Shown here: positions 2,569 through 22,059 of the stretch, piece after piece
Layout: every line of letters begins with the position of its first letter
How positions within the stretch are numbered: position 1 is the stretch's first letter
Assembly (NCBI GenBank): GCA_022825835.1
Contig: JAJDVZ010000156.1
Location: forward strand, 17,825 to 81,824
Reading direction: 5' to 3'
DNA: 64,000 nt
From: Candidatus Latescibacterota bacterium
Lineage (GTDB): Bacteria; Latescibacterota; UBA2968; UBA8231
The notes under the pieces: generated by a model
Told to the model about the DNA's origin: nothing
Databases searched by the model: none
The model's input: only the letters and a program-made list of their open reading frames with translations
Made by a program: the position numbers and the translations under genes

Positions 2569-3459
2569 ATGACTCGTCGCATCACAACGGCTGCTGTGGC
2601 TCTTACGTTGGGCCTAGCGGTCAACATTTCGGCGCACTCGCCCGAGGGTGCCATTTTTCCGGCCTTCCAGTGGCCAGCCGGCCTCGAGCCCGTCCTAGAC
2701 GGCGTCGGCAGCGAATACGATATCGTTCCCGAAGCGTACTGGCAGACCACCGAGCAGTTTCCCGATACCCAAGGTGGACGGGAAATAGACGCGTCCAATT
2801 TCGACGCCAAAGCCACGGTGACCTACAGCTTGGGGACCAACCGGCTCTATTTTTACAGCGAAGTATTCGACGATATCAACCGACCAGGCGATACCTGGCA
2901 AATTCTCCTCGACGCTGATCACAGCGGTGGTGAGTGCTATCCGGGTGATGAGCGCTTGGACGGCTCTCAGTGCTATCAGACCGAGACCTACAACAATATC
3001 GGCGACACGCTGTTGGGGTCGGAAATTGTCCACTTCTTCTGGGGCGCAGCGACTTGGCTGCCCGAGGAGGGCTGGTACAATGCGGTGGCCACCTTTGAGG
3101 GCGACCACTACGGTCCGGGGACGACCTGGCTAGAGATTCGTTTGGCTCCCACCGACGACATCAATCCCGCCGGTCCTGGAGAGTCGATCCTGCACGAGAT
3201 GCAAGAGAACAATATAATCGGCATCCACTACAACTGGATGGATTACGACGTCGGCTGCCGCCAAGCACGCGAAGGCGAAGAGTGCGGCGGTTGGGACGCT
3301 TTCTACAACCTGAGCCAGAGCGACATTGGCTTTAGGAACGCCGATGGCTGCAGCGACTTCTTCTTGTCGCCCGTTGATGAGAGCGTTGACTTCGGCGCTA
3401 TGACCACTTCGGTTGAAGCCACGACTTGGGGGCGGCTCAAGGCCGGTTTCGTCGATTAA
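2569..3459 (+). CDS. Secreted CBM9/DOMON-like putative carbohydrate-binding protein
   Basis: Signal peptide MTRRITTAAVALTLGLAVNISA. PVLDG...W...ATVTYSLGTNRLYFYSEVFDD resembles CBM9-like domains and the paralog at 54024-54845. The C-terminus ends in TTWGRLKAGF. SD GAAAGGAA. Confidence 0.55.
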   Translation: MTRRITTAAVALTLGLAVNISAHSPEGAIFPAFQWPAGLEPVLDGVGSEYDIVPEAYWQTTEQFPDTQGGREIDASNFDAKATVTYSLGTNRLYFYSEVFDDINRPGDTWQILLDADHSGGECYPGDERLDGSQCYQTETYNNIGDTLLGSEIVHFFWGAATWLPEEGWYNAVATFEGDHYGPGTTWLEIRLAPTDDINPAGPGESILHEMQENNIIGIHYNWMDYDVGCRQAREGEECGGWDAFYNLSQSDIGFRNADGCSDFFLSPVDESVDFGAMTTSVEATTWGRLKAGFVD

Positions 3460-3544
3460 GCTATCCTCCTCCATTCCTAGTGTTGTTTTCGCTGCCTGGC
3501 GTACCGAGAGGGTGCGCCAGGCAGCACATTTTAACCCAATAAGT

Positions 3545-5407
3545 ATGAAAGCCGCGATGCTTCGCCTAGCGCTGCTGTCTTTGCTGATCCCGAATTTGTC
3601 TTGGGGGCTCACCATTTATCGAGTTGGTGGCTACGAGCTTCCCCAGCCCGAATTGGCGGACAATCCAGACGTGGAGTTTGTTCAGTTGAGTTGGGAGGAC
3701 TTCGCCGCTGGAGCCGAGGGCGTGATGGTCGGCTTGGAGGTCGGCAATGAGGGACGGCTCGCCCCTGTCTTCATTCCTTCGGACGAGAATATGGCGGTAT
3801 CTTCCTTTGCCCGGGGCGGCGGTCCCGGCAGTTGGAAATACAATTTTCTCACCAAGGGCGAAGAAATCGATTTGATTGCCGACGGCGACTCAACCACTTT
3901 TCTCGACCCAGCGGTTCTAGTCGCACGCTCGGAGTCGTCGCTGGTGTACCTCGACTTGGGCGGCCGCTTCCTAGTGAATCGGGTCGTCGTCTATCCCCGG
4001 CCAAACTATCCCGACCGCTTGATCGAGGGCTATACCCTGTACTCATTGCCCAAGGGGACGATAAGGCCACAGGGCAAAAATGTAATCGCGCGGGGTATCG
4101 ACAACCGAAATCCGCGGCTCGAAATCAACTTTGTCCCTCGCCTGCTCGACCAGATACAACTCAATATCCACCAAAAAGAGGGTTGGGAAATCGCCGAGTT
4201 GGAAGTCTATGGCGAGGGGTATGTATCCAGTGCTCTGTACGCTTCTGGAGCGTTCGATCTCGGCCAGCCGTCCAGTCTGGGTGAGATCCGCTGGGCGGGC
4301 TTCCAAGATACCGGTGCCAAATTGATCCTCCGCACGCGCAGCGGCCATACGGTAGATCCCAACCGCTACTGGCGTTTTACTGGCCGTGGCGAGGAAAAAA
4401 CCTTCCGCAATGCCCGAGGTGTGCCCTTGACCGCGGCGGACTACAACAATCTGAAGGGCAACAAAGCCGAAATCACCACGGATCTGGACAATTGGAGTTC
4501 GTGGTCGGGGCCCTACGATTGGGCCGACAGTCTTGGCACGCCGATTATCTCGCCGGGTCCCCGACAATTCATCCAAATGCAGTTGGACTTCGCGCCTAGT
4601 GGGCTGGATGGTGCGGCCATCGATTTTATCGAATTCCGCGTCACGCAGCCGCCGGTGGCCGGCCGGGTGCTCGGCGAGATCTGGCCGATTGAAGTAAAGC
4701 CAGGGGAAGAGACGGCCTTTGTCTATGCCATGCGGCCGGATTTTGTCGGGGGCGAAAGCGGTTTTGATCGTTTGGTGTTGGAGACTGCCGGCCAGTTCAC
4801 CAGTGTCGATTCCGTGCGCGTCAACGAGGAATTGCAGGATTGGCGACTCGCCGAGCCTTTGGCGGACCAGCGGCTGGTATTGGAAGTGGTGCGCATGGAC
4901 CGGAGCAAGACTGGCCGCGTGGTGGAAATTTTCTTCAAGGGCCGGGTGTTCCGCTTTGGCACGGTCTTCGCTGCGCAAGTCTTCGATAGCCAACGCCCGC
5001 TAGAAGTGGGGCAGTTGGTGGAAGACGGCGATGCGACCTTCCGTCTAGACAGCAACCAGCGCTCGGTGGGGATTGAATTGGACCGCGAGATCGTCAGTGA
5101 GTTGGTGCTCAGTGCACGGGTATTCACGCCCAATGGCGATCAGGTCAACGATCAGGTCCATATCGAGTACATCCTACTCGAATTGGCCGGGACCGGAGCG
5201 GTGGAAGTGGGCATATTCGATCTGGCGGGTCGCCGGGTGCGCCAGCTATACCGGGGCGCAGACACCAGCGGTCAATACGCCCGGACCTGGGACGGCAGGG
5301 GAGATGGCGGGAGCGTGGTGGCACCGGGTCTCTATCTTTACCGAGTGCAGGTGGATACAGACGAGGGACAGACCGAACGCAGCGGACTAGTAGCCGTCGT
5401 GTATTGA
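3545..5407 (+). CDS. Secreted discoidin (F5/8 type C)-like domain protein with FlgD-Ig / T9SS type-B-like C-terminal domain (paralog 1)
   Basis: Start moved to the ATG at 3545 (MKAAMLRLALLSLLIPNLSWG signal peptide). Discoidin-like block ends in WEIAELEVYGEGY. Shared WSSWSGPY...SPGPRQFIQ block. C-terminal FTPNGDQVND...WDGRGDGGSVVAPGLYLYRV. Confidence 0.8.
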   Translation: MKAAMLRLALLSLLIPNLSWGLTIYRVGGYELPQPELADNPDVEFVQLSWEDFAAGAEGVMVGLEVGNEGRLAPVFIPSDENMAVSSFARGGGPGSWKYNFLTKGEEIDLIADGDSTTFLDPAVLVARSESSLVYLDLGGRFLVNRVVVYPRPNYPDRLIEGYTLYSLPKGTIRPQGKNVIARGIDNRNPRLEINFVPRLLDQIQLNIHQKEGWEIAELEVYGEGYVSSALYASGAFDLGQPSSLGEIRWAGFQDTGAKLILRTRSGHTVDPNRYWRFTGRGEEKTFRNARGVPLTAADYNNLKGNKAEITTDLDNWSSWSGPYDWADSLGTPIISPGPRQFIQMQLDFAPSGLDGAAIDFIEFRVTQPPVAGRVLGEIWPIEVKPGEETAFVYAMRPDFVGGESGFDRLVLETAGQFTSVDSVRVNEELQDWRLAEPLADQRLVLEVVRMDRSKTGRVVEIFFKGRVFRFGTVFAAQVFDSQRPLEVGQLVEDGDATFRLDSNQRSVGIELDREIVSELVLSARVFTPNGDQVNDQVHIEYILLELAGTGAVEVGIFDLAGRRVRQLYRGADTSGQYARTWDGRGDGGSVVAPGLYLYRVQVDTDEGQTERSGLVAVVY

Positions 5408-5432
5408 GCGGCATCCCACGGGAGGAAATAAT

Positions 5433-6302
5433 ATGGACAGCATTTATCTGCGATGGGCCGGATGTGGACACTTTGAGGCGTTGTTGGGCGATATCAACGT
5501 GTGTTTCGATCCCTATCTCTTCGGCGAGGATCTCGAACGGGCCGAGCCGATATTCGACTATATTTTTATCAGCCACGAGCACTTCGACCACTGTCATCCC
5601 AAGACCCTGCGCAAGCTCTGCGCGGGCGATCGCTGGAAAAAACTCTTCGTCCCCATCGGCTGTCTGACGCCCAACGAACCCGTTGACGAAAAGTACGGCG
5701 ATGCCGCTTTTGCGCGCGACCTGCCCATCACCAAGCACATCCCCGCAAACAAGGTCCAGGTGGTTTATCCCAAGTACCAGGATGTCGAGCGCTATGGCCG
5801 CCGCGAATTTCCCGGCCCCTTTGAGTTCGATTTGGGGCCGATTCAGGTTGAAGTGTACGAAAGCGGCGAAAGCGCCCGGCCGGACCTGCCCACTTGCGCC
5901 TATCTAGTTACCCATGCTGCAAGAGACGTAGCCATTTTTCACACCGGGGATTTGCACGGGGCCTATCCGCCGCTGGAGAATCTGCGCGGCCGCGTCGATT
6001 ACCTGGTACACATGAAGACGCCGATGGAGCCGCTCATCAAGGCGGTGCAGCCCAAATTTGTCGTTCCCACCCACTACCGCACCGACCGCCAGGCCGAGCC
6101 GATTCCAGCCGGTCATTGGCCGCCCAATCTGACCGACGTCAATGCCTTCCTAGAAGACTTGCGGGAGCAAATTGACGGCAAGGCCCAATTGCTGCCTTTT
6201 ACCGCGCCGATTCAATACGAAGTGGAGATGCCGGCCAAGAAGGTCAAGTGGAAGTGGGAATGGTACAATTCATGGGATGTTCCGGCTTGGCGAGAAGAGT
6301 AG
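5433..6302 (+). CDS. MBL-fold metallo-hydrolase
   Basis: 289 aa with SHEHFDHCHP (a variant of HxHxDH) and downstream His/Asp ligands (HTGD, PTHY). No signal peptide. SD GGGAGGAA 7 nt upstream. Confidence 0.8.
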   Translation: MDSIYLRWAGCGHFEALLGDINVCFDPYLFGEDLERAEPIFDYIFISHEHFDHCHPKTLRKLCAGDRWKKLFVPIGCLTPNEPVDEKYGDAAFARDLPITKHIPANKVQVVYPKYQDVERYGRREFPGPFEFDLGPIQVEVYESGESARPDLPTCAYLVTHAARDVAIFHTGDLHGAYPPLENLRGRVDYLVHMKTPMEPLIKAVQPKFVVPTHYRTDRQAEPIPAGHWPPNLTDVNAFLEDLREQIDGKAQLLPFTAPIQYEVEMPAKKVKWKWEWYNSWDVPAWREE

Positions 6303-6324
6303 GGGCAATCCCTTGTGGTTGCCC
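6302..6324 (+). repeat. REP-like hairpin GGGGCAATCCCTTGTGGTTGCCC directly after the MBL stop codon
   Basis: 8-bp stem with a 6-nt loop. The same motif family recurs at 42970-42991 (same orientation) and at 43006-43027 and 43079-43100 (reverse orientation). Confidence 0.6.
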
Positions 6325-6459
6325 AATCCCCTATGGACGGTGTATAGCCATCCTAAATCCTTCACCAGACGATCCGCAGATGGACGCAGAATAGTAGAAA
6401 CAAGACGATCCGCAATCTGAATCGTTTAAGTCATGCAGGACTGTTATAAAAAGAAAAGT

Positions 6460-8580
6460 ATGAGTAGGAAAATGTACGGCCTGCTCGCCTTGGCGTTGCT
6501 GTCGTTGGCAGCCGATGCCCCAGCGCAGACAATCGCCTTGGGGGGAGAGGGGCGTGCGTGGCCGGGTGGTGGGGAAGAAATCGACCCGCAATTCCGCTTG
6601 TCCAATACTGAGTTGGCCGTTGGCAATACGCCGGGCGGCGTCATCGACTTCGCATTTGCCGAGGGGTGGATTTTTCCGCAACAGATCGACACCGGGCGGA
6701 ATCTGGCACTAGGCGCGGCCGACAGAGGCGGCGGCATGAGCTCGCCCCTGCCCTCGATCAGCCAAGAGTCGCTGGCGGCCATCATCGACGAGGATGCAGA
6801 AACGGCCTTTCGCCGCAAGGCCAGTGCCGCCGGGGAAGTGGTCATCGCCCGCGGCATTATTATGGACTTGGATTTGGGCGCGCGCTTTGGTGTCAACCGG
6901 ATCCGGTTTTTTCCGCGCAACACGGTTCGCGCCAATGAGGAGTTCAAGTTCGAAAACGACTTTATGCGAGGCTATTCTCTAGAACTGAACGACGGCAGCG
7001 AAGAGACGTCCGTAGAAGGCCGCCCGCAGTACACTACCTTCGTCCGGGTCGAGGACAATACGGATGCAGTCGTCGATTTGTCTTTGCCCCTGCAATTTGT
7101 GCGCTATGTGCGGCTGGTATCGCTGTCCAATATCGGCTTTGAAGTCGATGAGTTGGAAGTATTCGGCGCGGGCTTTGTGCCCGAAGCCCAGTACCTGTCG
7201 GATATCTTCGACTTAGGCGATCTGGCCAACTGGGGCAACCTGCGCTGGAGCGAGCGGCGCGAGGGCATAGCCGGCTTGTCGGATATTCGCGTCTTCACCC
7301 GTTCCGGCCGCGACACCACGCCCTTTGTCTTCAATCGCTTTAACGCCGATTTGCAGGAAGTGCCCTGGAAGGCGTCGGCCGAAATCAACGGCGTCTTGCT
7401 CGATGACTTGCCCATTGACGGGGCTTTTGACCAGTTCAATTCCCAACCCGAATCCGTCCGCCAGGCCCTCACCCTCTCCCAGGCCGATCACGCCAGTCTC
7501 CCCCTCCAACAAAAAGCGCCCATCCGGGACGACCTAATCAACTGGAGCAATTGGTCGCCCCCCTATCCGTTAGAGGGCACGACCCCGGCTGGTACGCCTA
7601 TTGTCTCGCCTGGTCCGCGGCAGTACTTCCAGTTCAGGATCGATTTTGTCAGCCGCGATTTTCTCGCCGCGGCCGGAGTCGGCACCCTGTCCTTTGATGT
7701 GGCCAGACCCGTGCCAGCCGAAAAAATTGTCGGCGAAATCTTCCCCCGCGACGTCGCCGCCGGAGAGGTGGTGGAGTTCACCTATGGGGCGCGGGTGGGA
7801 GTCCGGCCGCAGGATACGGGTTTCAATCGCTTTGAAATATCCTCGCCGAGCATCTTTGAAAAAATCGGTCGCATAGAGGTGCTCAACGCCCGGGACGAGC
7901 TTATCGCGGGGGAGGATTTTGACGTGGCCCTCGCGGCGGCGCAATTGCCGCTGCACAAGGGCGAATTCAGCATTGAAAGCGCCGAGGATGGCCGCTTTGT
8001 GGTGGGCTTTCCACCTGTCGGCGATGGCGATTTGCTCAAGATCACTTTTACGACCTCGGTCCTGCGCTTTGGGCAGGGATTTGCCGGTCGGGCTTGGCTG
8101 GTCGATCCCAGCGTGGCAGACGAAGGGCAATTGCCGCAGTTGGTCGTGCCGGGCAATGCAGCCCAACTGGGAGCCGCAGATGTGGATCCCAGGCCGGTGG
8201 GCAGCGAGGACCTAACCGCGGTGGATAACAATCTAGCGGTGCGCATTGCCATCAAGGGATCGCTGCTGGGCCAGCTCCAAGTGACCCCCGAGATTTTTAC
8301 TCCCAACGGCGACGGAATCAACGATGCGGCTGCGGTCCATTTCGAGGTGCTGCGGCTGGGCGTAGGTGCTCCGCTGAGGGTGGAGATTCGCGATCTAAGC
8401 GGGCGTTTTATTGCCGCGGCCTTTGCTGACGACCGAGCTAGCGGTCGCTTTACAGCCACTTGGGATGGGCGGGATGGCAACGGCGCTGTGGTGGCACCTG
8501 GCATCTATTTGGTCCGCGTCTTGCTCGATACCAATGTCGGCTCCGAGGCAAAAACCGGCCTCGTTAGCGTGGTGTACTGA
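6460..8580 (+). CDS. Secreted discoidin-like domain protein with FlgD-Ig / type-B-like C-terminal domain (paralog 2)
   Basis: Signal peptide MSRKMYGLLALALLSLAADAPAQ. The start could also be 6433 or 6472. Discoidin-like block ends in VDELEVFGAGF. WSNWSPPY...SPGPRQYFQFR block. C-terminal FTPNGDGINDAA...WDGRDGNGAVVAPGIYLVRV. Confidence 0.8.
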   Translation: MSRKMYGLLALALLSLAADAPAQTIALGGEGRAWPGGGEEIDPQFRLSNTELAVGNTPGGVIDFAFAEGWIFPQQIDTGRNLALGAADRGGGMSSPLPSISQESLAAIIDEDAETAFRRKASAAGEVVIARGIIMDLDLGARFGVNRIRFFPRNTVRANEEFKFENDFMRGYSLELNDGSEETSVEGRPQYTTFVRVEDNTDAVVDLSLPLQFVRYVRLVSLSNIGFEVDELEVFGAGFVPEAQYLSDIFDLGDLANWGNLRWSERREGIAGLSDIRVFTRSGRDTTPFVFNRFNADLQEVPWKASAEINGVLLDDLPIDGAFDQFNSQPESVRQALTLSQADHASLPLQQKAPIRDDLINWSNWSPPYPLEGTTPAGTPIVSPGPRQYFQFRIDFVSRDFLAAAGVGTLSFDVARPVPAEKIVGEIFPRDVAAGEVVEFTYGARVGVRPQDTGFNRFEISSPSIFEKIGRIEVLNARDELIAGEDFDVALAAAQLPLHKGEFSIESAEDGRFVVGFPPVGDGDLLKITFTTSVLRFGQGFAGRAWLVDPSVADEGQLPQLVVPGNAAQLGAADVDPRPVGSEDLTAVDNNLAVRIAIKGSLLGQLQVTPEIFTPNGDGINDAAAVHFEVLRLGVGAPLRVEIRDLSGRFIAAAFADDRASGRFTATWDGRDGNGAVVAPGIYLVRVLLDTNVGSEAKTGLVSVVY

Positions 8581-8597
8581 ACGGGAGGGCGTTTTCT

Positions 8598-11327
8598 ATG
8601 TATGGCAAATACGGGTTGGTTTTCCTGCTCCTCAGCAGCTTGATGAGTCCAGATTGGCTCCAGGCGCAGGATTACGGCTCTCGCCTCGGAGTGCAGCGCG
8701 GTGGTCGGGTGTCGTATGAACCTCGGGGCCCAGGCGTCCTCTTTGACGCTCTCGATCCAACCCTCAAACGCTGGTACGTGCCCCAGGAACTCTACAACGA
8801 GTACCGCTGGCGGCCTTGGCAGTACAACAACTACGCCCGCGAGAATTACCAGCGCTACGTCAATACAGCCATAGAGGGCAACTACTTCTACGACCTATAC
8901 GGCAATTTTGTCACCCAAGGTTGGCTGATATACGACATGCGCCGGCAACAACCGGCCGAGTTCGGCAGCACCGTATTCAAGGACAGCCGCTATGGCTCGT
9001 GGTTTAACAACGTCTTGATCGCCTCCGACAGCAAGGGCCAGAATCACTATGCGGTGACCATTGGCAATAGCATCCGCACGACGCTGACGCCGCTGACTTT
9101 TTCCAAGCCGGCCTTCAACGGCATCCAAGCCGATTTTGCCTCGGACAAGTACCAAGCTACGGTGCTGATGTCGCGCATTAGTGCCCCCAATCAAGTGGGC
9201 GTCGCCGTTGGTGCCGTGCCCACGGGCGTGTCGAATACCACCGACTTTCTCGGCGGCCATTTCACTGCCCAAGTGGGCGATTTCGTCACCTTGGGGACCA
9301 CCTATATCAACGCCCATCAGTCCAATACGCTGTTGGAGAGCTTTTTAGGCGGTCGTGCCCAAGGCGATTTGACCGTCGATCAAAACAGCAGCGCCGTCAC
9401 CCGCATCGAAATCCTGCTCGAAGACGACTCGCCGGCCGACGGTCGGGGAGGGGCGGCGCTGTTTTCGCAAAATATCATCATCACGGCGATCCGGGATTTC
9501 AATACCGGCGAGCGCGAAACCGTCACGGGCAAGGAGATCAACTTTGCGCCTCTCGTCCAGGGCGGTTTCCAGCGGCAGGGGGGCTTTTTGGCTGCGGACG
9601 GGGACGAGACCATTCGCCTCATCTACGACTTTTCCGACCGCGCCTATCTGGGCCCCGATCCCTCGACCATTGTAGAAGTCACTTTCGAGTTGGTGCTGGC
9701 CAACGACTACAAGGTGTCGATGGCTTCCAATCGCCAACTGAGCCGCGCCGGAGAATTCCATCCCCTGCTAATCGCCCGGGCCGACGGCAATGTGCGCGAC
9801 ACTTCGAATCAGCGGCTCGTGCGCTTTGACTACGGTCTGCCCACAGCCAACCAAATTTTTGGTTTCCACCTCGCCACGACGAGCTTCTTGGGCTTTGATA
9901 CCTATGCCGAGTACGCGGTCAACCACCAGTTTAGGAAGTACCCCAACCCCAATGTAGAAGGCGACCACGAATCGGCTTCGCGGCGCGCCGACGCTTGGAT
10001 GCTAAACGCGGCGAAAAACGCCTATCCGTGGTTTGTCTATGGCGAGGCCTTCAGCATGGGCAAAGACTACGCGACCAGCATTTTTCTCAGCGACCAGCGG
10101 GGCGTAATCGACTATGCGACCCAGAACCGATTCTTCGAGTTCGTCGAGGACAACGACGACCAAGACCGCACCCCCGACTGGGGGCGCGCCTTTCAGGCCG
10201 GTCCCGATATCGAGGTCTTTCCAGGCTGGGACGAGAACAACGATTTCATCAACGACTTCAACCAAAATGACAACCGCACGCGCGAGAATCAGTTGCCCGA
10301 TTACGAAGAACCCTTCCTGCGCTATCACAGCGACCGGCCCGAGTTTCTCTTTGGCATTGATCTCAACAACAACGGCTGGATCGACCGCTTTGAGAACGAC
10401 ACCGAGCCAGACTTCCCCTACAAACGCGACCATCGGGGGTACAATGCCTATGGCGGTGTCCATCTGACGCCGGAGACTCGGCTGACTGCGGGGCGCACCC
10501 GGCAGTGGTTGATTGCGTCTGCGCGGCGCAGCGAGACCAGTTACGCTCTCTTCACCTTTGACAAGGATATCGCCGACTTGGGGCGCATCCGGGTTTTTGA
10601 ACATCTGAAACGGGCGCACGACAATATAGCCGACGACCGCATTGCGCCCCTGCCCTTTTTCCGCGGGCCGCAGCTACCCGTCCAAGATGTGCTGTCGGCC
10701 CGAGACACTTGGATCAACACCGTGTGGCTGGGCTTCAGCTACACGGGCACGGCCAACCTGACGGTGGAAAACAAGCTCAAATACGAATTTTTTCATCAAT
10801 TGCTCGATGATGAGGTGCTGGCAGAGTTGGGCGCTCGGCGGGACTCGCGCTTTTTCGGGCTAATCAATAAAGCCGAGTATTCCCTCAATGTAGCAGGGGT
10901 GAAATTGATGCCACGGGTCAAAAGCGAGTACCTGATTGACTCGCCCTTTCTGCGCTCCGAAGACGAGCGCAAGCAGTGGACTCCGAGTTTGTTTTTCATC
11001 ACCCGCCTGCCGCTGATGCCGCGCACCCAGATCGAAGCGGGCTTGGAACAGAGCTACCGCTGGGAGTTGCTAAGCGACGAGAAGGCCCTAGTTGAGACTG
11101 GGGCCGAAGGAGTGGGTACCGGGGATCAGCGCGAGACGATTTTGGCAATTCAGGCGACCAATATCACCGACTATTTGGGCTATAAACTGATTACTCAGCT
11201 CGGTTTCCAATACGAGCGCCGGGCCGCGGAAATCGTCGAAAAGAAAAACACTGATTTCGGCTTGGGAAACAGGACCTCGACCGGTTTCACAACCTTTATC
11301 ACGGTGTACGCCGGTCTGGGTCTCTAG
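8598..11327 (+). CDS. Large (909 aa) signal-peptide protein, putative outer-membrane beta-barrel with EF-hand-like acidic insert (paralog A)
   Basis: N-terminal signal peptide ends in LQAQ. Long stretches of alternating hydrophobic/polar pattern. Acidic block at 10138-10458 includes DLNNNGWIDRFE. SD GGGAGGG. I recognise no named family. Confidence 0.75.
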   Translation: MYGKYGLVFLLLSSLMSPDWLQAQDYGSRLGVQRGGRVSYEPRGPGVLFDALDPTLKRWYVPQELYNEYRWRPWQYNNYARENYQRYVNTAIEGNYFYDLYGNFVTQGWLIYDMRRQQPAEFGSTVFKDSRYGSWFNNVLIASDSKGQNHYAVTIGNSIRTTLTPLTFSKPAFNGIQADFASDKYQATVLMSRISAPNQVGVAVGAVPTGVSNTTDFLGGHFTAQVGDFVTLGTTYINAHQSNTLLESFLGGRAQGDLTVDQNSSAVTRIEILLEDDSPADGRGGAALFSQNIIITAIRDFNTGERETVTGKEINFAPLVQGGFQRQGGFLAADGDETIRLIYDFSDRAYLGPDPSTIVEVTFELVLANDYKVSMASNRQLSRAGEFHPLLIARADGNVRDTSNQRLVRFDYGLPTANQIFGFHLATTSFLGFDTYAEYAVNHQFRKYPNPNVEGDHESASRRADAWMLNAAKNAYPWFVYGEAFSMGKDYATSIFLSDQRGVIDYATQNRFFEFVEDNDDQDRTPDWGRAFQAGPDIEVFPGWDENNDFINDFNQNDNRTRENQLPDYEEPFLRYHSDRPEFLFGIDLNNNGWIDRFENDTEPDFPYKRDHRGYNAYGGVHLTPETRLTAGRTRQWLIASARRSETSYALFTFDKDIADLGRIRVFEHLKRAHDNIADDRIAPLPFFRGPQLPVQDVLSARDTWINTVWLGFSYTGTANLTVENKLKYEFFHQLLDDEVLAELGARRDSRFFGLINKAEYSLNVAGVKLMPRVKSEYLIDSPFLRSEDERKQWTPSLFFITRLPLMPRTQIEAGLEQSYRWELLSDEKALVETGAEGVGTGDQRETILAIQATNITDYLGYKLITQLGFQYERRAAEIVEKKNTDFGLGNRTSTGFTTFITVYAGLGL

Positions 11328-11329
11328 TC

Positions 11330-14062: not shown

Positions 14063-14072
14063 GAGGATTTCT

Positions 14073-16586
14073 ATGACGAGCAGACATTGGGCGAGCTGGA
14101 TTTTAGTCGTCGCGCTCGGTTGCCGAGCCGCAGTGGCTCAAGAGGGGTACGCGATCCAAGGCAACCGCATTGTCACCCAAGGTGCAGACCAGTGGCACCA
14201 ATGGATTTTTCCCTTTGGCACGGTCGATATCGCCTCCGAAGGCGCTAGACCGCACTTTGTGGCGTCGGAACTCAATGCCTGCCTCAATGCGCACCGCTTT
14301 CCCCTATGGGCCGACGAAGATGAAAAGGAAGGGGGGATCTTGTCGGCTGGATCGGGGCTGGCTGGAGCAGTGCGCATCCTCGACGGCAATGTAGATACCT
14401 ACTGGGAGCCCGATCTAGACGATCCACAAGATCTGTGGTGGGTGGCGATTGACTTGGGGCGGATCGTATCGGCCAAGCACATTGTTTTGCGCTTTGCCCG
14501 GGAAGGTGAAGGCGATCCGTTTTACCAATTTCGCCTGATGGTGGCCGACGGCGAAGGCAAAGTAGGCGATAATCTCGATTATCACTTGGTCGGCAAGACC
14601 GAGCGGCCCAATGTCGATCAACGCGAATTTTCGTTTGATCTACAGCCCTTTCAAAGTGCCGATCCCCATTTTACCGGCGATGCCTTTCGCTTTGTGCAGG
14701 TGGTGATGACGGACAGCCGCTTGGGCAAGGCCGAGGAAGTGGACAGCTTGGCCTATCAGAGTTTGCCAGCGGCTTTGCAGGGCGCAGTGGAGTACTTCGG
14801 TCGCAGTCGCAGCGGGAGCGAGTGGCTTCTCGACAGGGAGGCCTATGAACTGCTCGATCAGTCCGAGCGGGGTTCAATCCGCTATTACCGCCGCGAACAA
14901 CCGCGCCTCGCCGAGGTCGAAGTCTGGACCTTGGGCGAGAATATATCGCTGGGGGCGATCCAGCGGGGCGGCACGGTGGAAGGGCACGGCTTTAATCCCA
15001 CCCGCAGCCTCGATGGGGACTACACAACTTGGTACGGTCTGCAGCAGAGTTACACCCGCGAGGCGGCCGAGCCCGAGCGGCAAGTCCTCTTTGACCTAGG
15101 GGCTTTGTACTGGCTGGATCTATTCCACTTTCTGCCGCCAGCGGCCCGCAGCGCCGGCGGCACGCTGGGCAATTATCGGATGAAACTGTCGGACGGTTCG
15201 CTCGCCCCGGACGGGAGCTTGCAGTGGGTGCAGGTCGAAGAGCGGCGCGTCTTCCGCCAGCCTCGGTTCCAAGAGGTGCGCTTTGAGTTGCAAAAGGTCC
15301 GCTACATCGCCTTCGACTACCTAGTGGGTAGGGGGGGCAACAGAGCTGGATGGTCCGAACTCCAAGCCTACGGCGAGGGCTATCAGCCGGAGGTGGTGTT
15401 GGAATCGCCGTTGATCGATTTGAGCAGTAGCATGAATTTGACCACGCTCCACTGGGAGGCCGACGTCCCGCCCGGTACGCGCATTGAGGTGGCCACCCGC
15501 ACCGGCGATCAGACCAAAGTCAACACCACGTATTATCGGAGCGACGGCGCCGAGGTGGACAAAAAAGCGTACCATAAATTGATTGCCGCGCTCAAGGGGG
15601 ATTCGCTCAATGTGTTGGTCGTTGACGAAGAAACTTGGAGCCCTTGGAGCAAACCGCACTTGCTGTCAGGCCAAGTCATCACTTCGCCGTCGCCGCGCCG
15701 CTTCCTCAAGACCCAGGTGCGGTTGAGTAGCGACGACCCGCAAAATGCCGTGCTATTGCGGCGCTTGGAGGTGTCGTTTTCTCAACCGTGGGTGGGTAGA
15801 GCTTTGGGCGAGGTATTCCCGGTGCAAGTGGAACATCCGGGAGAGGACACGCGGCTGACCTTTTTCGTGCGGCCTGTGCGGCGGGCGGGCGATCCGGGCA
15901 TTGACGAGGTGTTATTGGTCAGTTCAGGGGAGACGCCGCTGGCGCTACGGGAGGTACGTCTTGGCTCGGCAGCAGAAGTAGCTGCCGGAGGTGGCGAAGC
16001 GCTGGGCCTAGATGTGGTAGAAGTGCTCGAGACCGCGACCGATTCGCTGTGGGTACGCCTACCCGACGCGGTTGACCGCAACGAGGTCCTCGCGGTTGAT
16101 GTATTGACCGCGCTATTTGGCCACGGCGTTTCCTTTGCCGGACGGGTGGGCAACCGCGATGATTCGGGAACTTGGCAATTGGTCGAAGCCGATCAAGAGG
16201 CTGTGGCCGAAGTGGAAAGCGGCGTCCTGCGGGTGTTGGTGCCCTCGGGTCAGGTGGGTTTGGCAGACCTGACGCTGGACACAGCGGTTGTGACGCCCAA
16301 TGGGGATGGGATCAACGACGCAGCGCGGATTGGCTTTGAAGTGCTGCGCTTGGATGGAGCCCAGGTGGTGATCGTCTCGGTGCACGATCTGGCCGGTCGC
16401 CGCCTTTGGACCCTGGAGCAGGTGCGCGAGCGGGCGAGCGGGCAATACGAGGTGGTTTGGGAGGGGGTGGATGATGCGGGCGAGCGGGTGCCGCCGGGGA
16501 CGTATATTTTGCGGGTGGAGGTGGATGCGGATGCGCGCAGCAATGTGCGGACTAAGATAATGCGACTAGCTCACGTGGTGTATTGA
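14073..16586 (+). CDS. Secreted protein with two discoidin-like domains and FlgD-Ig / type-B-like C-terminal domain (paralog 3)
   Basis: Start moved to the ATG at 14073 (SD AGGAGGA at 14061; signal peptide MTSRHWASWILVVALGCRAAVAQ). LDGNVDTYWEP...WWVAIDLG... and LDGDYTTWYG...SELQAYGEGY. WSPWSKPH...SPSPRRFLK block. C-terminal VTPNGDGINDAA...WEGVDDAGERVPPGTYILRV. Confidence 0.8.
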   Translation: MTSRHWASWILVVALGCRAAVAQEGYAIQGNRIVTQGADQWHQWIFPFGTVDIASEGARPHFVASELNACLNAHRFPLWADEDEKEGGILSAGSGLAGAVRILDGNVDTYWEPDLDDPQDLWWVAIDLGRIVSAKHIVLRFAREGEGDPFYQFRLMVADGEGKVGDNLDYHLVGKTERPNVDQREFSFDLQPFQSADPHFTGDAFRFVQVVMTDSRLGKAEEVDSLAYQSLPAALQGAVEYFGRSRSGSEWLLDREAYELLDQSERGSIRYYRREQPRLAEVEVWTLGENISLGAIQRGGTVEGHGFNPTRSLDGDYTTWYGLQQSYTREAAEPERQVLFDLGALYWLDLFHFLPPAARSAGGTLGNYRMKLSDGSLAPDGSLQWVQVEERRVFRQPRFQEVRFELQKVRYIAFDYLVGRGGNRAGWSELQAYGEGYQPEVVLESPLIDLSSSMNLTTLHWEADVPPGTRIEVATRTGDQTKVNTTYYRSDGAEVDKKAYHKLIAALKGDSLNVLVVDEETWSPWSKPHLLSGQVITSPSPRRFLKTQVRLSSDDPQNAVLLRRLEVSFSQPWVGRALGEVFPVQVEHPGEDTRLTFFVRPVRRAGDPGIDEVLLVSSGETPLALREVRLGSAAEVAAGGGEALGLDVVEVLETATDSLWVRLPDAVDRNEVLAVDVLTALFGHGVSFAGRVGNRDDSGTWQLVEADQEAVAEVESGVLRVLVPSGQVGLADLTLDTAVVTPNGDGINDAARIGFEVLRLDGAQVVIVSVHDLAGRRLWTLEQVRERASGQYEVVWEGVDDAGERVPPGTYILRVEVDADARSNVRTKIMRLAHVVY

Positions 16587-16595
16587 GGCGCAGGG

Positions 16596-18410
16596 GTGGG
16601 CCGCCAAGTCCAACGATTGACAGCTATCTTGGCGCTTGGCTGGTCTATGGGCTGCCAAAGCGAGCCGCCGCCGGTGCGTTTTACCGACGCCACCGACCAA
16701 GCGGGCCTTTCTTTTATCCACGAAAACGGTGCCGCCGGGCAGTACTTTCTCATCGAGACTATGGGTGCAGGTGGGGCGCTGGCCGACTTTGACGAGGACG
16801 GCGACTTAGATATCTATCTGGTCAACGGTTTCGATTTAAGAGGCTTGGACGCCCCGCCGATCAACTTGGTGCATCGAGAAGACGGCCTCTATTGGGTGGC
16901 CCCATCGGCCCCCAGTGCCGCGGACCGCTCTGCGGACCCAGCCGATTACGCGGTCGCGCTGGCCCCCGTAGCTGGGGTGGAACCAAGGGGCAATGCGCTC
17001 TACCGCAACGAAGGGACTGGTACTTTTGTCGAAGTGCCCAATGCTGGTGGGGCTGCGGACCTAGGTTATGGCATGGGCGTGGCTGTGGCCGATGCCGACA
17101 ACGACGGCGATCAAGACCTGTACGTGACCAACTACGGGCCCAATGCTCTCTATTGCAACCGAGGGGACGCCACCTTCACCCGCAGCCGTGGCGTCGAGGC
17201 CCCCCAATGGAGCGCCAGCGCTGCCTTTTTCGACCGCGACAACGATGGTGCGCTCGATCTGTACGTGGTCAATTATCTCGATTTTACCCTAGCTACCAAC
17301 AAAATCTGCGGCGGCTTCATCCGCACCGACGACGCGGGCTTGCGCGCGATTGGGGAAGATACGCGCTCGTACTGCGCGCCCAGCGAGTACGGGGGCGTGC
17401 CCGATGTGCTCTATCACAACGAGGGGGAAGGCACTTTTACCGATGTATCCATTGCCGCGGGTATTGCCAATTCCAATGGCAAGGGCTTGGGCGTGGTGGC
17501 TTGGGACTGGAACGAGGACGGCTACCAGGATCTATACGTGGCCAACGACGGGGTGGCCAACTTCCTCTACCAAAACGCCGGCGATGGCACCTTCCGCGAG
17601 ATAGCCCTACAAGCCGGGGTGGCCTACAATGTGCGCGGCCAAGCCGAGGCTGGCATGGGGGTGGACATCAGTGATTGCGACCGCGATGGCGATTGGGATC
17701 TGTTCGTCACCAATTTCTCCCGCGAAACCAATACGCTCTACCGCAATGAAGGAACCTACTTCAAAGATGTGACTGCGACGTCGGGCTTGGGCCGGCCGAG
17801 TTGGCTCTATTTGGGCTTTGGCACTGCGTTTTTCGATTACGACCACGACGGCGACCAAGATCTGTACGTGGCCAACGGCCACGTCTTGGACCGCGTCCAT
17901 ATACTGCAACCTGGGGTGCGCTACGCCCAAGAGCATCAGCTATTTCGCAACGACGGCTCCTGCCGCTTCGCCGATGTGGCAGACAGTGCGGGGAGTTGGT
18001 TCGCGCAAGAGCAGATAAGTCGAGGGTTGGCCCAAGGCGATTGGGACGGTGACGGCGATTTGGACCTGCTGGTGACCAATTGCGGAGGCCCAGCCAAGCT
18101 AGTGCGCAATCACGACGGCAACGGGCGCAATTGGATCTCAATCAAGCTGGTGGCTACAGCGGCCAATCGGGATGCGGTGGGAGCCGAGGTGCGGCTGGTG
18201 ACTGGTTCGTTGGAACAGCGCCGCCTAGTGAGAAGTGGGAGCAGCTATTTATCGGCTGGCGACCGGCGACTCCACTTTGGCTTGGGAGGCCACGAGCGCA
18301 TTGACCTGCTGGAAGTCCAATGGCCGGATGGGACCATTGAGGGATTTCGGGATCTATCCGCCGAACAAAATTTGCTAATTGAGCAAGGACGGGGTGTGCA
18401 GGATGAATAG
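16596..18410 (+). CDS. CRTAC1-type FG-GAP/VCBS repeat + ASPIC/UnbV domain lipoprotein
   Basis: GTG start with a lipobox-like GWSMGC. Repeated DxDxDGDxDLYV loops (DEDGDLDIY, DNDGDQDLY, DRDGDWDLF, DHDGDQDLY, DGDGDLDLL). C-terminal NWISIKLV...GAEVRLV...GSSYLSAGDRRLHFGLG...VQWPDG. Confidence 0.85.
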   Translation: MGRQVQRLTAILALGWSMGCQSEPPPVRFTDATDQAGLSFIHENGAAGQYFLIETMGAGGALADFDEDGDLDIYLVNGFDLRGLDAPPINLVHREDGLYWVAPSAPSAADRSADPADYAVALAPVAGVEPRGNALYRNEGTGTFVEVPNAGGAADLGYGMGVAVADADNDGDQDLYVTNYGPNALYCNRGDATFTRSRGVEAPQWSASAAFFDRDNDGALDLYVVNYLDFTLATNKICGGFIRTDDAGLRAIGEDTRSYCAPSEYGGVPDVLYHNEGEGTFTDVSIAAGIANSNGKGLGVVAWDWNEDGYQDLYVANDGVANFLYQNAGDGTFREIALQAGVAYNVRGQAEAGMGVDISDCDRDGDWDLFVTNFSRETNTLYRNEGTYFKDVTATSGLGRPSWLYLGFGTAFFDYDHDGDQDLYVANGHVLDRVHILQPGVRYAQEHQLFRNDGSCRFADVADSAGSWFAQEQISRGLAQGDWDGDGDLDLLVTNCGGPAKLVRNHDGNGRNWISIKLVATAANRDAVGAEVRLVTGSLEQRRLVRSGSSYLSAGDRRLHFGLGGHERIDLLEVQWPDGTIEGFRDLSAEQNLLIEQGRGVQDE

Positions 18411-20418
18411 CCCGTCCTCGGCAGCCTCTATGGGCCGGCGCGAGTTGGGGATGGCAGGCGGTCTCTTGCTCTTGGCTTTGGTCGTGCGGCTGGTCTATCT
18501 GGAGCACAGCCAAGACAATCCCTTTTTCTCGGCACCGGTAGTGGACGCCCACTCCTATGTGGCGCAGGCGCGGCAGCTCGTTGAGGTGTCTTGGGTGGGA
18601 GACAAGCCCTTTTGGCAGCCGCCTTTATACCCCTATTTTCTCGCCCTGATCTACGCCGTTTCCGGCGACTTGTTCTGGACGCCCCGATTTATTCAGTTCC
18701 TCTTGGGGGTAGCCTCCTGTGCCTTGGTGTTTGGCATCGGTCGGCAGGTATTTGGTACCCGAGTCGGTCTCTTAGCTGGGGCTATGGCCTGTCTATACGG
18801 ACCCTCTATCTATTTTGAGGGAGAGTTGCTACCCACCGCGCTGGCCGTTTTTCTCAATCTCCTGTTGCTCTTTGTCCTGCTCCAGCCCGACTGGGGACGG
18901 GGACAGGCTCTAGTCTCGGGCCTCGTCCAAGGCTTGGCCATAGTCGCCGTGCCCAATGCGGCCCTGTTGGCTCCTTGCGCCTGCCTGTGGTACTGGAAAA
19001 GCACCGAGCGAGCCGTGCGGAGCAAGCTGGTCTGGTGCCTGCTTTTTGCGGCGACCGCCAGTGCAGTGGTCGGCGCAGTAACGGCGAGAAATTGGGTGGT
19101 CAGTGGCGAGTTCATCCCCTTGTCTTGGAACGGCGGTGTAAATTTCTACTTGGGCAACCATCCCGATTACGACCGCTTGGTGGGGATCCGCCCAGGGCCG
19201 GAATGGGAGGGCTTAATGGAGCAGCCGATGGCAGCGGGCTATGAGGGATACGCCGAGCGGTCGGCCTATTTCTACCGACAAGCCGGCGACTGGATCGCCA
19301 GTGCGCCTGGGGATTTTGTGCGGTTGTTGGGGTACAAGGTGTTTTTGTTGGCGCGGGGCGAGGAGATCAAGCGCAACCAAGACGTGTACTTCGCCCGCAC
19401 CTATTCCTCGCTGATGAGCGTCTTGCTGTGGAAAACCCACCACTTTGCCTTTCCTTTTGGGCTGCTGGGGCCCTTGGCTGCTGTGGGTATAGTGCTGGCT
19501 TGGCGGCACCGACCCGAGGCGAGTTTGCTGCTACTCTGCACCGGCGCGTACAGCGCCTCGCTCCTGCTCTTTTTTATAACCGGACGCTATCGCCTGCCCT
19601 TGGTGCCGCTGCTGCTGCTCTTTGCCGGGTACGCCCTGATCTGGCTGGTGCAACAGGGGCAGGCCCGACAGTGGCGTCCCTTGGGGATCGGTGTGGCTTT
19701 GGTCGTCTTGCTGGGGATCGCCGCCAACGCTGGCCTGCGTCCGGTCGATCCCTTGGCCGACGCGGAAATACACTTTGATTTGGGACGCGTCCAAGCCCAA
19801 CAGGGACAGTATGCGGCTGCGGTGCACTCCTTTGGGACAGCCGTGCAACTCGATCCAAATCACCTGCGCGCCCACCACAATCTGGGCGCGGCGCTGGCGG
19901 TGATGAAGCGCTACGACGAGGCCGAGGCAGTTTATCAGCAGGCCCTGGCGCAAGCGCCCGAAGATCGGGGGCTGCACCTCAACCTGGCGGCTCTGTACCG
20001 AGCTACGGGACGCTACGAGCAAGCGGTGGAGCACTACCGCCGAATTTTGGCAATAAAGGCCGACGCAGCGGTTTTTCTGGCGTTGGGAAGGGTTTATAAG
20101 AGAATGGGGGTAACAGAGCAGGCCCGGGAAGCCTTTGCGGCGGCGCTACGTGGCGACGAAGTGCGGGCGCAGGCGGCCAATGAACTGGGCTTGATCGAGG
20201 TCCGACAAGGGGCGTTGGAGCGGGCGGTTGATTATTTTGCCATGGCACTAAAAGCCGCGCCCGGCAATCACTTGATTGCCTTTAATTTGGGGGCGGCCTA
20301 CCACGACTTGGGCCGATTCGACAAGGCGGCCGAGTTCTATCGCCTAACCCTGAGCTTGGCCCCTGAGTACGCCAAAGCCCAGCGCGCGTTAGCGCGATTG
20401 CAGCGGCATCAGCCCTGA
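18403..20418 (+). CDS. Polytopic GT39/ArnT-like membrane protein with C-terminal TPR repeats
   Basis: The ATG at 18403 overlaps the upstream stop (ATGAATAG). The N-terminal half has many TM helices plus PLYPYFLALIY and FGIGRQVFG, typical of GT39/PMT_2-like proteins. The C-terminal third has at least 5 TPR-like A/Y/L-rich repeats. Confidence 0.7.
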   Translation: MNSPSSAASMGRRELGMAGGLLLLALVVRLVYLEHSQDNPFFSAPVVDAHSYVAQARQLVEVSWVGDKPFWQPPLYPYFLALIYAVSGDLFWTPRFIQFLLGVASCALVFGIGRQVFGTRVGLLAGAMACLYGPSIYFEGELLPTALAVFLNLLLLFVLLQPDWGRGQALVSGLVQGLAIVAVPNAALLAPCACLWYWKSTERAVRSKLVWCLLFAATASAVVGAVTARNWVVSGEFIPLSWNGGVNFYLGNHPDYDRLVGIRPGPEWEGLMEQPMAAGYEGYAERSAYFYRQAGDWIASAPGDFVRLLGYKVFLLARGEEIKRNQDVYFARTYSSLMSVLLWKTHHFAFPFGLLGPLAAVGIVLAWRHRPEASLLLLCTGAYSASLLLFFITGRYRLPLVPLLLLFAGYALIWLVQQGQARQWRPLGIGVALVVLLGIAANAGLRPVDPLADAEIHFDLGRVQAQQGQYAAAVHSFGTAVQLDPNHLRAHHNLGAALAVMKRYDEAEAVYQQALAQAPEDRGLHLNLAALYRATGRYEQAVEHYRRILAIKADAAVFLALGRVYKRMGVTEQAREAFAAALRGDEVRAQAANELGLIEVRQGALERAVDYFAMALKAAPGNHLIAFNLGAAYHDLGRFDKAAEFYRLTLSLAPEYAKAQRALARLQRHQP

Positions 20419-21233: not shown

Positions 21234-21345
21234 AAACGACGAATAGAGTCAATGAGTGCAGTTGTTGAGCAAGACAGTATGGCCCGCTACATTTATGCGG
21301 TCTTTGGGTGGGATAACTCTTGCTAACGGGCCAAATTGGAGAGCT

Positions 21346-22059
21346 ATGAACTTACTGCGAAAATGCGCCGCCGAATTCATCGGCGCGTTTGCCATTGTCT
21401 TTGCTGGCTGCGGCGCTGTGGCCATTGACCAGATTTCCGGAGGGGCGGTTAGCCACGTGGGTGTTGCCGCCACGTTTGGGTTGGTCATTATGGTGATGAT
21501 CTATGCCACCGGCCACATTTCTGGGGCGCATTTCAACCCGGCGGTGACCCTTGCATTCGCGCTGACTCGACATTTCCCGAAAAGGGAGATTGCGCCCTAT
21601 ATCTTGGCTCAGTGCGCCGGGGCCGTGGTGGCTAGCTATATACATGTGGCGAGTTTGTCGTCGGTGCTGGCCGTCACTCAACCTAAGCAGGTACTGAATT
21701 TAGGGGTCACCCTGCCGGTGGACGGCCTGTTCACCACGGCTCTAGTGTGGGAATTCATGCTGACTTTTTTGCTGATGCTGGTCATTATGAGCATGGCGAC
21801 CGATTTTCGCGCTGTGGGACCGGCGGCTGGTTTGGCCATTGGCGGCACTGTGGGGCTGGAGGCCATGTTCGCCGGGCCGCTGTGCGGGGCCTCGATGAAT
21901 CCAGCCCGCAGCTTGGGTCCGGCCCTAGCGGCCGGCGAATGGACGGCTTTTGCTGCATACATCATTGGCCCAGTGCTAGGAGCTGCGGCTGGTGCGCTAT
22001 TCTACGAATTCATTCGCTGCCAAGCGCCTTCCGACCAAGAAGTGAAGGGCTGTTGCTGA
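21346..22059 (+). CDS. MIP-family channel (aquaporin/glyceroporin-like)
   Basis: Two NPA boxes (HISGAHFNPAVTLAF and GASMNPARSLGPA) and six hydrophobic helices. Start set at the ATG at 21346 (MNLLRKCAAEFIG). Confidence 0.9.
   Translation: MNLLRKCAAEFIGAFAIVFAGCGAVAIDQISGGAVSHVGVAATFGLVIMVMIYATGHISGAHFNPAVTLAFALTRHFPKREIAPYILAQCAGAVVASYIHVASLSSVLAVTQPKQVLNLGVTLPVDGLFTTALVWEFMLTFLLMLVIMSMATDFRAVGPAAGLAIGGTVGLEAMFAGPLCGASMNPARSLGPALAAGEWTAFAAYIIGPVLGAAAGALFYEFIRCQAPSDQEVKGCC

Follow-up and report, generated by a model that had tools for sequence, protein, structure and literature searches.

A conserved, multicopy gene module of Latescibacterota that combines surface proteins carrying type-B-like C-terminal domains with a family of predicted giant outer membrane beta-barrels

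In Bacteroidota, proteins with a C-terminal domain (CTD) of type B, which are type IX secretion system (T9SS) cargo, depend on and stay bound to cognate outer membrane (OM) barrels of the PorP/SprF family, which are often encoded adjacently (PMC9143113, PMC12618676). Several such cognate cargo/PorP-type pairs are found per genome (PMC12618676), and in two Bacteroidota plasmid records the type-B cargo gene is followed 11 to 23 nt later by the PorP/SprF gene. The T9SS translocon itself contains a giant barrel, a peptidyl-prolyl isomerase (PPI) subunit, and a TPR lipoprotein, and it needs a proton-driven motor (PMC10994853). Here, a cargo-then-barrel locus is described in a 64,000-nt stretch of DNA (the window) from a Candidatus Latescibacterota bacterium (contig JAJDVZ010000156.1, positions 17,825 to 81,824), which shares about 97% DNA identity with a closed 'Candidatus Latescibacterota' metagenome-assembled genome (MAG) chromosome, OZ244790.1. 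The locus is one copy of a conserved, multicopy surface module, and we tentatively propose that its CTD-tagged glycan-binding proteins act together with a cognate giant-barrel platform. Searches of the open-access literature gave nothing on Latescibacteria or Latescibacterota with T9SS, or on Latescibacterota with polysaccharide utilization and the OM, and the 2015 Latescibacteria genome paper does not mention the genes of the locus; a search on how T9SS is distributed across phyla also yielded nothing of use. The gene module is previously undescribed, and its two barrels (E and F below) and its first protein (A) are covered by no curated family. No characterized system matches the locus; such a match had been named as a point against its own reading by an earlier note on this DNA, made from the letters alone.

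The open reading frame (ORF) map, together with start-codon inspection, placed nine genes between 2569 and 20418, all on the + strand. These genes (A to I) and the two genes that precede them are as follows.

1-515, + strand: 3' end of a second FG-GAP/ASPIC gene, truncated by the window edge
488-2215, - strand: P, SurA-like periplasmic peptidyl-prolyl isomerase (PPIase), two parvulin domains
2569-3459, + strand: A, secreted protein of about 300 aa
3545-5407, + strand: B, start ATG at 3545, 620 aa, secreted, type-B-like CTD
5433-6302, + strand: C, cytoplasmic hydrolase of the metallo-beta-lactamase (MBL) fold
6460-8580, + strand: D, 706 aa, secreted CBM32/discoidin-FN3-Ig protein, type-B-like CTD
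8598-11327, + strand: E, 909 aa, predicted giant OM beta-barrel, signal peptide
11330-14062, + strand: F, 910 aa, paralogue of E, second predicted giant barrel
14073-16586, + strand: G, 837 aa, secreted, extra N-terminal discoidin domain, type-B-like CTD
16596-18410, + strand: H, FG-GAP/ASPIC (CRTAC1-like) protein
18403-20418, + strand: I, polytopic GT39/PMT_2-type glycosyltransferase, C-terminal TPR domain

From D onward the junctions are tight: 17 nt (D-E), 2 nt (E-F), 10 nt (F-G), 9 nt (G-H), and an 8-nt overlap (H-I). The gene list, strands, and junctions given in the earlier note were all reproduced, and searches with Pfam and NCBIfam hidden Markov models (HMMs) bore out nearly all of its domain labels, the exception being a CBM9-like label for A. 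A promoter and terminator scan of the region gave nothing above shuffled background, so only spacing and synteny argue for cotranscription. Nothing was found in the 64-kb window by Rfam and tRNA scans.

The secreted proteins B, D, and G are paralogues with 31 to 33% identity in alignment (33% for B versus D). As previously noted, all three have a WSxWS...SPGPRQ block and a C-terminal FTPNGDG..WDG..G.Y domain of about 90 aa, which sits at the extreme C terminus with type-B motifs.

5108-5404, + strand: type-B-like CTD of B
8281-8577, + strand: type-B-like CTD of D
16287-16583, + strand: type-B-like CTD of G

For CHU_C (PF13585; cutoff, 27), B scored 41.8 bits, D 21.0, and G 25.1, the latter two under the cutoff, and for FlgD_ig the scores were 34.1, 32.2, and 33.5 bits, respectively. 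TIGR04131 scores were 22.5 (B), 13.5 (D), and 13.5 (G) against a cutoff of 35. In an alignment that included two type-B CTDs annotated on Bacteroidota plasmids, the three CTDs kept PNGD..N, D..G, W(D/E)G, and G.Y invariant, a motif-for-motif agreement with genuine type-B CTDs that upholds their proposed type-B/FlgD-Ig-like character. They are about 10 residues longer than these two, and the last residue is Tyr in 214 of 222 B/D/G-like proteins. In tblastn searches against plasmids, the CTD of D had no match at E ≤ 1e-3, and that of B had weak matches, the best of which fell within annotated type-B CTD proteins; the PorP/SprF sequences used for comparison below came from these matches. Most homologues of D carry precomputed PF13585 and PF13860 matches, and NCBI and JGI give some of them the name 'gliding motility-associated C-terminal domain-containing protein'.

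The passenger parts of these proteins resemble sugar-binding and adhesin-like domains. In Foldseek, a confident AlphaFold2 (AF2) model of D (pLDDT, 87.7) matched a jelly roll of the CBM32/discoidin type (4a41, TMt 0.73; 4zz5, TMt 0.80; galactose oxidase N-domain) and FN3/Ig arrays (ScpA, RbmA, and PrgB), and its C-terminal Ig-like domain also matched PorU. G passed the cutoffs of F5_F8_type_C (PF00754; 29.7 bits versus 28.2) and F5_F8_type_C_2 (PF22633; 32.3 versus 27.8). Membership in the discoidin/CBM32 class is therefore by HMM for G and by fold match for D, and B is assigned only via its 33% identity to D. The WSxWS sites lie at approximately 4580-4640 (B), 7530-7600 (D), and 15780-15830 (G), each followed by SPGPR(Q/R); the motif falls in the region modeled as FN3/Ig-like. 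This five-residue signature marks the FN3 domains of class I cytokine receptors.

The same class of CTD also occurs apart from the locus. A 760-aa WD40 beta-propeller protein encoded 27 kb off (47405-49687, - strand) has a FlgD_ig/CHU_C-like CTD as in B, D, and G (E 1.5e-7) with no adjoining E-type barrel, and CTDs of this class were also seen on other proteins near related loci. The unlinked WD40 protein points to a general CTD pathway at another place in the genome, and, judged by its sequence distribution, the CTD resembles a general sorting tag of this organism. The locus is thus not obviously 'self-contained', as it had been called.

E and F share 46% identity over their full length. Neither has a Pfam, NCBIfam, or PDB sequence match, and a PDB profile search with E was also empty, even at E ≤ 10, in line with the earlier statement that these proteins are assignable to no characterized family. 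More than 1,128 homologues of E were found in a 90%-clustered protein collection; none of them is named, and full-length identity is typically about 50%. A profile search of 1.84 billion representatives returned 1,035 clusters when E ≤ 1e-3 was allowed and 367 when E ≤ 1e-30 was required. On the basis of these sequence searches, the E/F superfamily comprises about 1,000 clusters at 50% identity, all labeled 'hypothetical'.

The structure of E was modeled by AF2 from 40 homologues (pLDDT, 71; pTM, 0.69). The model has about 24 to 28 long antiparallel strands of 10 to 22 residues, located within residues 95-245, 396-490, and 612-907, and a beta domain is inserted at about residues 269-395, after the first ~8 strands. 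The top 50 Foldseek matches in the PDB were all OM barrels, including MtrB, Deinococcus SlpA, the PapC/FimD ushers, LptD, TonB-dependent transporters, and porins, with TM-scores of 0.13 to 0.33 and identities of 6 to 9%. The best structural matches are of similar size and strand length (MtrB, 26 strands; LptD, 26; PapC/FimD, 24; Deinococcus SlpA, 30), and ushers likewise have a beta domain inserted early in the barrel; unlike these large barrels, E lacks the usher N- and C-terminal domains, the LptD jelly roll, and SLH, and has no HMM match to them. A weak SlpA_C Pfam match was seen in one relative. No hydrophobic helices were found in E or F. According to the model, E and F are very probably large OM beta-barrels of no solved or curated family, rather than soluble proteins.

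Conservation in the family is highest in an N-terminal extension (residues 24-95), with a mean column identity of 0.80, and in an acidic loop (residues 491-611), with one of 0.75, yet both were modeled with low confidence, the loop with a pLDDT of <50. Conserved segments that AF2 does not place are expected of partner-binding or metal-binding regions. The acidic loop, of which residues 506-612 correspond to nt 10113-10433, consists of 32 to 37% Asp/Glu/Asn and contains a canonical EF-hand-type loop, DLNNNGWIDRFE (nt 10359-10394). F has the counterpart DMNNNGWIDRFE (nt 13130-13165). Both follow the pattern D-x-N-x-N-G-x-I-D-x-x-E, the key positions of which are invariant across the family alignment. 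The Ca2+-dependent adhesion put forward in the earlier note may thus gain from this invariant loop in the barrels.

Several known barrel families were tried for E and F and rejected at the level of sequence. PorP/SprF gave no PF11751 or TIGR03519 match in any of the window proteins scanned, and hhalign comparison of the E-family profile with two PorP/SprF proteins gave a probability of <1%. TonB-dependent transporters, including SusC, were rejected by the lack of a PF07715 or PF00593 match, and chaperone-usher ushers by the lack of a Pfam match and by Foldseek TM-scores to PapC/FimD of only 0.18 to 0.29. SprA and TpsB had no HMM match in Pfam or NCBIfam.

To place the locus among its relatives, E-type genes were scanned in one genome per GTDB species, giving at least 543 confirmed genes, and ORFs of 81 related loci were called and labeled by the window proteins. 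Since many contigs are short, counts over these 81 loci are lower bounds. E was found in 76 loci, D in 74, B in 68, A in 57, G in 53, a P-like PPIase in 46, a second barrel in 45, a TPR or GT39-TPR protein in 37, an H-like ASPIC protein in 21, and the MBL hydrolase in 3. Ten of the 37 TPR/PMT_2-TPR proteins are detectably full-length homologues of I. A D-type gene stood immediately 5' of a barrel gene in 69 cases, practically every copy, and mostly at <80 nt, which bears out the proposed synteny of the ~910-aa family with discoidin/CTD genes, and tandem second barrels were spaced by -4 to +5 nt in most of the 45 cases. Gene order varies between module subtypes and protein identity is only 35 to 55%; therefore, the association is kept by selection and not by recent common descent. 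Context look-up of two distant E homologues returned the same neighbors. The module occurs several times per genome, with at least 4 to 5 loci, and up to five separate loci lie on one chromosome (for example, OZ220690.1).

Among the best 80 loci of the at least 543 E-type genes, 56 are labeled Latescibacter* and 24 Gemmatimonadota or other. Twenty-two of the 80 come from MAGs labeled Gemmatimonadota/Gemmatimonadaceae ('Gemmatimonas phototrophica' bins included), Handelsmanbacteria, or Planctomycetota (L011, L014, L017, L019, L020, L025, L030-L032, L036, L039, L042, L053, L055, L059, L060, L066, L071, L072, L077, L079, and L082), and L008 and L074 are labeled 'uncultured bacterium'. The non-Latescibacterota labels may reflect either the true distribution or MAG mislabeling.

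Apart from the module genes, the only other recurrent neighbor was a DUF6785/6784 polytopic protein with at least 10 hydrophobic segments (28 of 81 loci). The window itself has tandem DUF6785/DUF6784 polytopic membrane proteins at 57685-59682 and 59690-61657 (+ strand), each with at least 10 transmembrane segments. No open-access paper mentioning DUF6785 and no PDB relative was found; this protein may be an inner-membrane partner of the modules. One module subtype is flanked by a sugar-type ABC binding protein and permease.

The contexts of seven more distant members of the E superfamily were also taken. In L095 (150-14799), a discoidin-CHU_C protein is followed, in this order, by a 308-aa PorV/PorQ/PorP-like barrel (NF033709, 84 bits versus a cutoff of 90), three tandem E-like barrels, and a 1,083-aa TPR protein. 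L089 (311-9968) has a small barrel homologous to that of L095, with FG-GAP-FlgD_ig proteins flanking an E-like barrel. The MAG behind L087 (1916-22976) has a canonical module as well; L087 encodes a pair of E-like barrels along with a protein like B/D, a TPR protein of 1,095 aa, ExbB-ExbD-ExbD, a PPIase like P, and DUF6785. In L092 (1462-9559) and L093 (1-9906), ExbB(-ExbD-ExbD) lies just 3' of tandem E-like barrels, so that ExbB-ExbD(-ExbD) adjoins E-like barrels in 3 of the 7 divergent loci; no TonB gene was seen beside these sets. The ~1,090-aa TPR proteins match PorW/SprE partially (E about 1e-34, below the cutoff) and YbgF/BamD-type repeats more strongly. DUF4159, DUF5683, and DUF4340 were also seen among these loci. 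To judge by gene content, the invariant principle is a CTD-tagged surface protein plus one to three E-type barrels, with small T9SS-type barrels and a proton-driven motor as optional neighbors. The presence of ExbBD next to E-like barrels makes an energy-dependent function plausible, whether import or extraction/export.

Protein A is the second family of the module without a curated counterpart, with no Pfam or PDB match, PDB profile search at E ≤ 10 included. Its earlier CBM9-like label found no direct match to CBM9 (PF06452/PF16011) in 27 A-family members at E ≤ 1; what stands is a remote link, in which the A-family profile matched a relative with a weak precomputed CBM9_1 match (hhalign, 97.7%; E 2.5e-12). 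This relative keeps the C-terminal tail but is without the N-terminal His. In all 27 aligned members, His is the first residue past the AxA signal-peptidase site (H23 in A, nt 2635-2637), a second invariant His follows ~95 residues later in DADHSGG (around residue 118), and several Asp/Glu are invariant. The pattern is reminiscent of the N-terminal-histidine (histidine-brace) copper sites, an analogy that is offered as a lead. A ends in VE..WGR[IL]KA (nt 3412-3456; family form, TAVE..SWG(R/Q/H)IKA.F), a tail that was found among 919 ORFs of related loci in 58 A-like proteins and 2 unlabeled A-like ORFs only. In relatives that lie outside the module, the N-terminal His and DADHSGG are retained, but a T9SS type-A/FlgD_ig tail or a PKD domain has been swapped in for the tail. 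These fusions indicate that the A domain is extracellular, and the swap makes the tail the likely element tying A to the module; from its conservation, the tail may be a docking or sorting strand.

Compared with type-B cargo and PorP/SprF (SprB/SprF of Flavobacterium johnsoniae and PG1035/PorP of Porphyromonas gingivalis), the module is alike in the Sec signal peptide and ~90-aa C-terminal beta-sandwich of the cargo, in a cargo gene followed within tens of nucleotides by an OM barrel gene, and in several pairs per genome with large multidomain adhesin-like passengers. It differs in that its barrels are ~910 aa instead of ~300 to 450 aa, are unrelated to PorP/SprF by HMM and profile-profile comparison, and often come as tandem pairs or triplets. 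In addition, its CTDs are longer, with a terminal Tyr in place of a basic residue, a PPIase, an A protein, and a GT39-TPR enzyme are added, and the host is Latescibacterota, in which T9SS is undocumented in the literature searched.

Here, we favor, tentatively, the platform reading, for which the cargo-then-barrel order at <80 nt, mirroring the Bacteroidota order, was counted. Also in its favor are the barrel prediction for E, the CBM32/FN3/Ig/CTD architecture of D, the type-B motifs of the CTDs with the CHU_C matches of B and most D homologues, the conserved composition of the module over 81 loci and its several copies per genome, the terminal Tyr of nearly all B/D/G-like proteins, the restriction of the tail to A-like proteins, the invariant EF-hand-type loop of E and F, and the conserved segments of E that AF2 does not place. 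B, D, and G would be exported across the inner membrane by Sec. Once in the periplasm, the CTD proteins would be chaperoned by the PPIase of the module and possibly glycosylated by the GT39-TPR enzyme, after which they would reach the cell surface via a CTD-dependent route. There, the CTD would keep B, D, and G with the cognate E/F barrel(s), as in Bacteroidota type-B cargo with its OM partner, and A would join the complex via its conserved C-terminal WGRIK strand. The complex would display glycan-binding domains on a Ca2+-stabilized barrel platform, and each paralogous module would probably be tuned to a different ligand. The barrels may serve either as a platform only or also as a conduit. 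Of the earlier proposal that the ~910-aa proteins take the role of an OM partner, the predicted barrel fold and the synteny with cargo genes speak in favor, and no relationship to PorP/SprF is detectable.

Several observations weigh against this platform. E and F are without detectable PorP/SprF similarity and three times larger. The curated CHU_C threshold was passed by B only and that of TIGR04131 by none of the three proteins. Among the 30 larger proteins scanned in the 64-kb window, no T9SS core gene product (SprA/Sov, PorK/L/M/N, PorV, or PorU) came to light, and the complex of CTD protein and barrel is one that we infer from gene context. In L095, the PorV/Q/P-like small barrel lies between the CTD cargo gene and the three E-like barrels, so the carrier or anchor role may belong to another protein; the co-occurrence of small and giant barrels also indicates that the latter are not merely a PorP stand-in. 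For the window and 83 loci (1.72 Mb), phmmer with two queries each found no PorP/SprF-like or PorV/Q-like ORF, within the limited sensitivity of single-sequence searches.

The several module copies per genome make a nutrient capture function similar to that of polysaccharide utilization loci (PULs) a serious alternative, although we consider it less likely than the platform. B, D, and G would then be surface glycan-binding proteins (like SusD and SGBPs) and E and F the uptake channels of a new, plug-less or differently gated transporter family, with an ExbB-ExbD motor in trans, DUF6785/6784 or an ABC permease in the inner membrane, and another substrate for each module. Like Bacteroidota PULs (SusC/SusD plus glycan-binding proteins), the modules occur as many paralogous loci, diverged within a genome, combine an OM barrel of ~900 to 1,000 aa with CBM/Ig-like surface proteins, including CBM32-type domains, and are frequently linked to inner-membrane transporters, namely, DUF6785/6784 in 28 loci and twice in the window and the sugar-type ABC genes of one subtype. 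The ExbB-ExbD sets of the divergent loci also fit, the conserved N-terminal extension of E could be a gating or energy-coupling element, and Latescibacteria are predicted polymer degraders (PMC4454575). However, neither E nor F shows a Plug or TonB-dependent receptor signature, no TonB gene was seen beside the ExbBD sets, and neither the window nor the 81 canonical loci contain ExbB/D. SusD is not among the module genes, no recurrent glycoside hydrolase or lyase genes were found in the modules of the 81 loci, and the surface proteins have a CTD where those of PULs have a lipid anchor. This reading would also give no account of the dedicated PPIase and glycosyltransferase.

Somewhat less probable again is dedicated export, in which E and F would be cargo-specific OM translocons (usher-, two-partner-, or small-T9SS-like) for the adjoining CTD proteins, with the PPIase and TPR protein as periplasmic subunits and an ExbBD-type motor in some lineages. 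The size of the barrels fits protein-conducting or protein-holding barrels (MtrB, ushers, and LptD), the domain inserted after the first ~8 strands can be compared with the usher plug, and each module has its own PPIase. The T9SS translocon likewise contains the giant barrel, PPI subunit, and TPR lipoprotein named at the outset and needs a proton-driven motor (PMC10994853). Its Extended Translocon (36-strand SprA barrel, PPI, PorV/Plug, and SprE/PorW; PMC10994853) resembles the module in a giant barrel with an N-terminal extension, a PPIase, a TPR protein, and CTD substrates, and divergent relatives bring in the ~1,090-aa TPR protein, a small barrel like PorV/Q, and genes for a proton-channel motor. 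The parallel is striking, but it is an analogy only: the module barrels do not match SprA in sequence, are about 2.5 times smaller, and occur in many paralogous copies instead of one core machine, and the motor genes are ExbB/ExbD instead of GldL/M and are absent from canonical loci. Export is further countered by the same CTD class on the unlinked WD40 and other proteins, which suggests a general CTD pathway and not one pore per cargo, by the lack of HMM similarity to SprA, ushers, and TpsB, and by TM-scores to solved barrels of at most 0.33; the TPR matches may be generic repeat similarity.

A more far-reaching combination is more doubtful still. E-type barrels with their own PPIase and TPR proteins would be cargo-dedicated export and display machines, in some lineages with a PorV/Q-like carrier and an ExbB-ExbD motor; outside Bacteroidota, they would form an independent, multicopy equivalent of the T9SS translocon. 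A would be a new N-terminal-histidine protein, possibly a copper protein, that acts extracellularly on the captured substrate. In general, platform, import channel, and export machine rank in this order and are not mutually exclusive. Incidental clustering of unrelated co-oriented envelope genes, with E and F as general porins or SlpA-like envelope-tethering proteins, could draw on the SlpA matches in Foldseek and Pfam and on the lack of promoter and terminator signals, but it is very improbable, since neither chance nor simple vertical operon inheritance explains the recurrence of the same gene set in 81 loci, with several rearrangements of gene order and protein identities of just 35 to 55%.

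The remaining genes of the locus largely agree with their earlier descriptions. P, described as a divergent SurA-like PPIase, has two parvulin-type rotamase domains (Rotamase_2, 2.9e-15; Rotamase, 1.5e-11) and a weak SurA_N_3 match. The product of 1-515 matches residues 428-582 of H (phmmer, E 3.5e-30), in accordance with a second ASPIC protein ending there, and the near-identical loci L004, L005, and L007 have an H-like gene in this position. H itself has FG-GAP_3 (PF13517; 7.5e-42, 142 bits, 7 stretches) and UnbV_ASPIC (PF07593; 6.4e-19, 68 bits), as described; on the strength of SMGC near its N terminus, it is possibly a lipoprotein. I exceeded the PMT_2 cutoff (PF13231; 39.3 bits versus 26.1) and has matches to many TPR families and about 9 hydrophobic segments, consistent with a GT39/ArnT-like TPR membrane protein. 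The interposed cytoplasmic hydrolase C has the expected MBL fold (Lactamase_B_3, 1.7e-10). Its 3 loci are all near-identical relatives, which rules it out as a module member; by this distribution, it is probably a lineage-specific passenger that was apparently inserted into the operon.

A short way downstream of the module is the gene for a 963-aa TonB-dependent receptor with an N-terminal CarboxypepD_reg and a SusC/RagA-like architecture (22135-25026, - strand), which, unlike E and F, matches PF07715 and PF00593 strongly. An aquaporin gene (21256-22059) separates it from the module. The window further contains M19 and M55 peptidases (25122-27006), gamma-glutamyltranspeptidase genes (40144-41760, - strand, and 55993-57600, + strand), and, elsewhere, a PhyH dioxygenase, sugar-acid enzymes, and an ABC/substrate-binding protein set. 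No T9SS, Exb, or Tol family match was found among 20 larger ORFs between 21256 and 61657.

The Latescibacterota, a widespread phylum without cultured members, are regarded as likely degraders of complex polymers. The module defines a large unannotated family of predicted OM proteins that deserves an HMM in domain databases, and it links this barrel family with a sorting signal of recognizable kind, the type-B-like CTD, with domains that bind sugars, and with a glycosyltransferase and a dedicated chaperone. D-E and A-E are concrete candidate protein pairs. If the barrels are import channels, the module would represent a PUL-like strategy made from different parts. If, instead, the barrels partner or carry the CTD proteins, the logic of type-B cargo would extend beyond Bacteroidota, with a nonhomologous partner.

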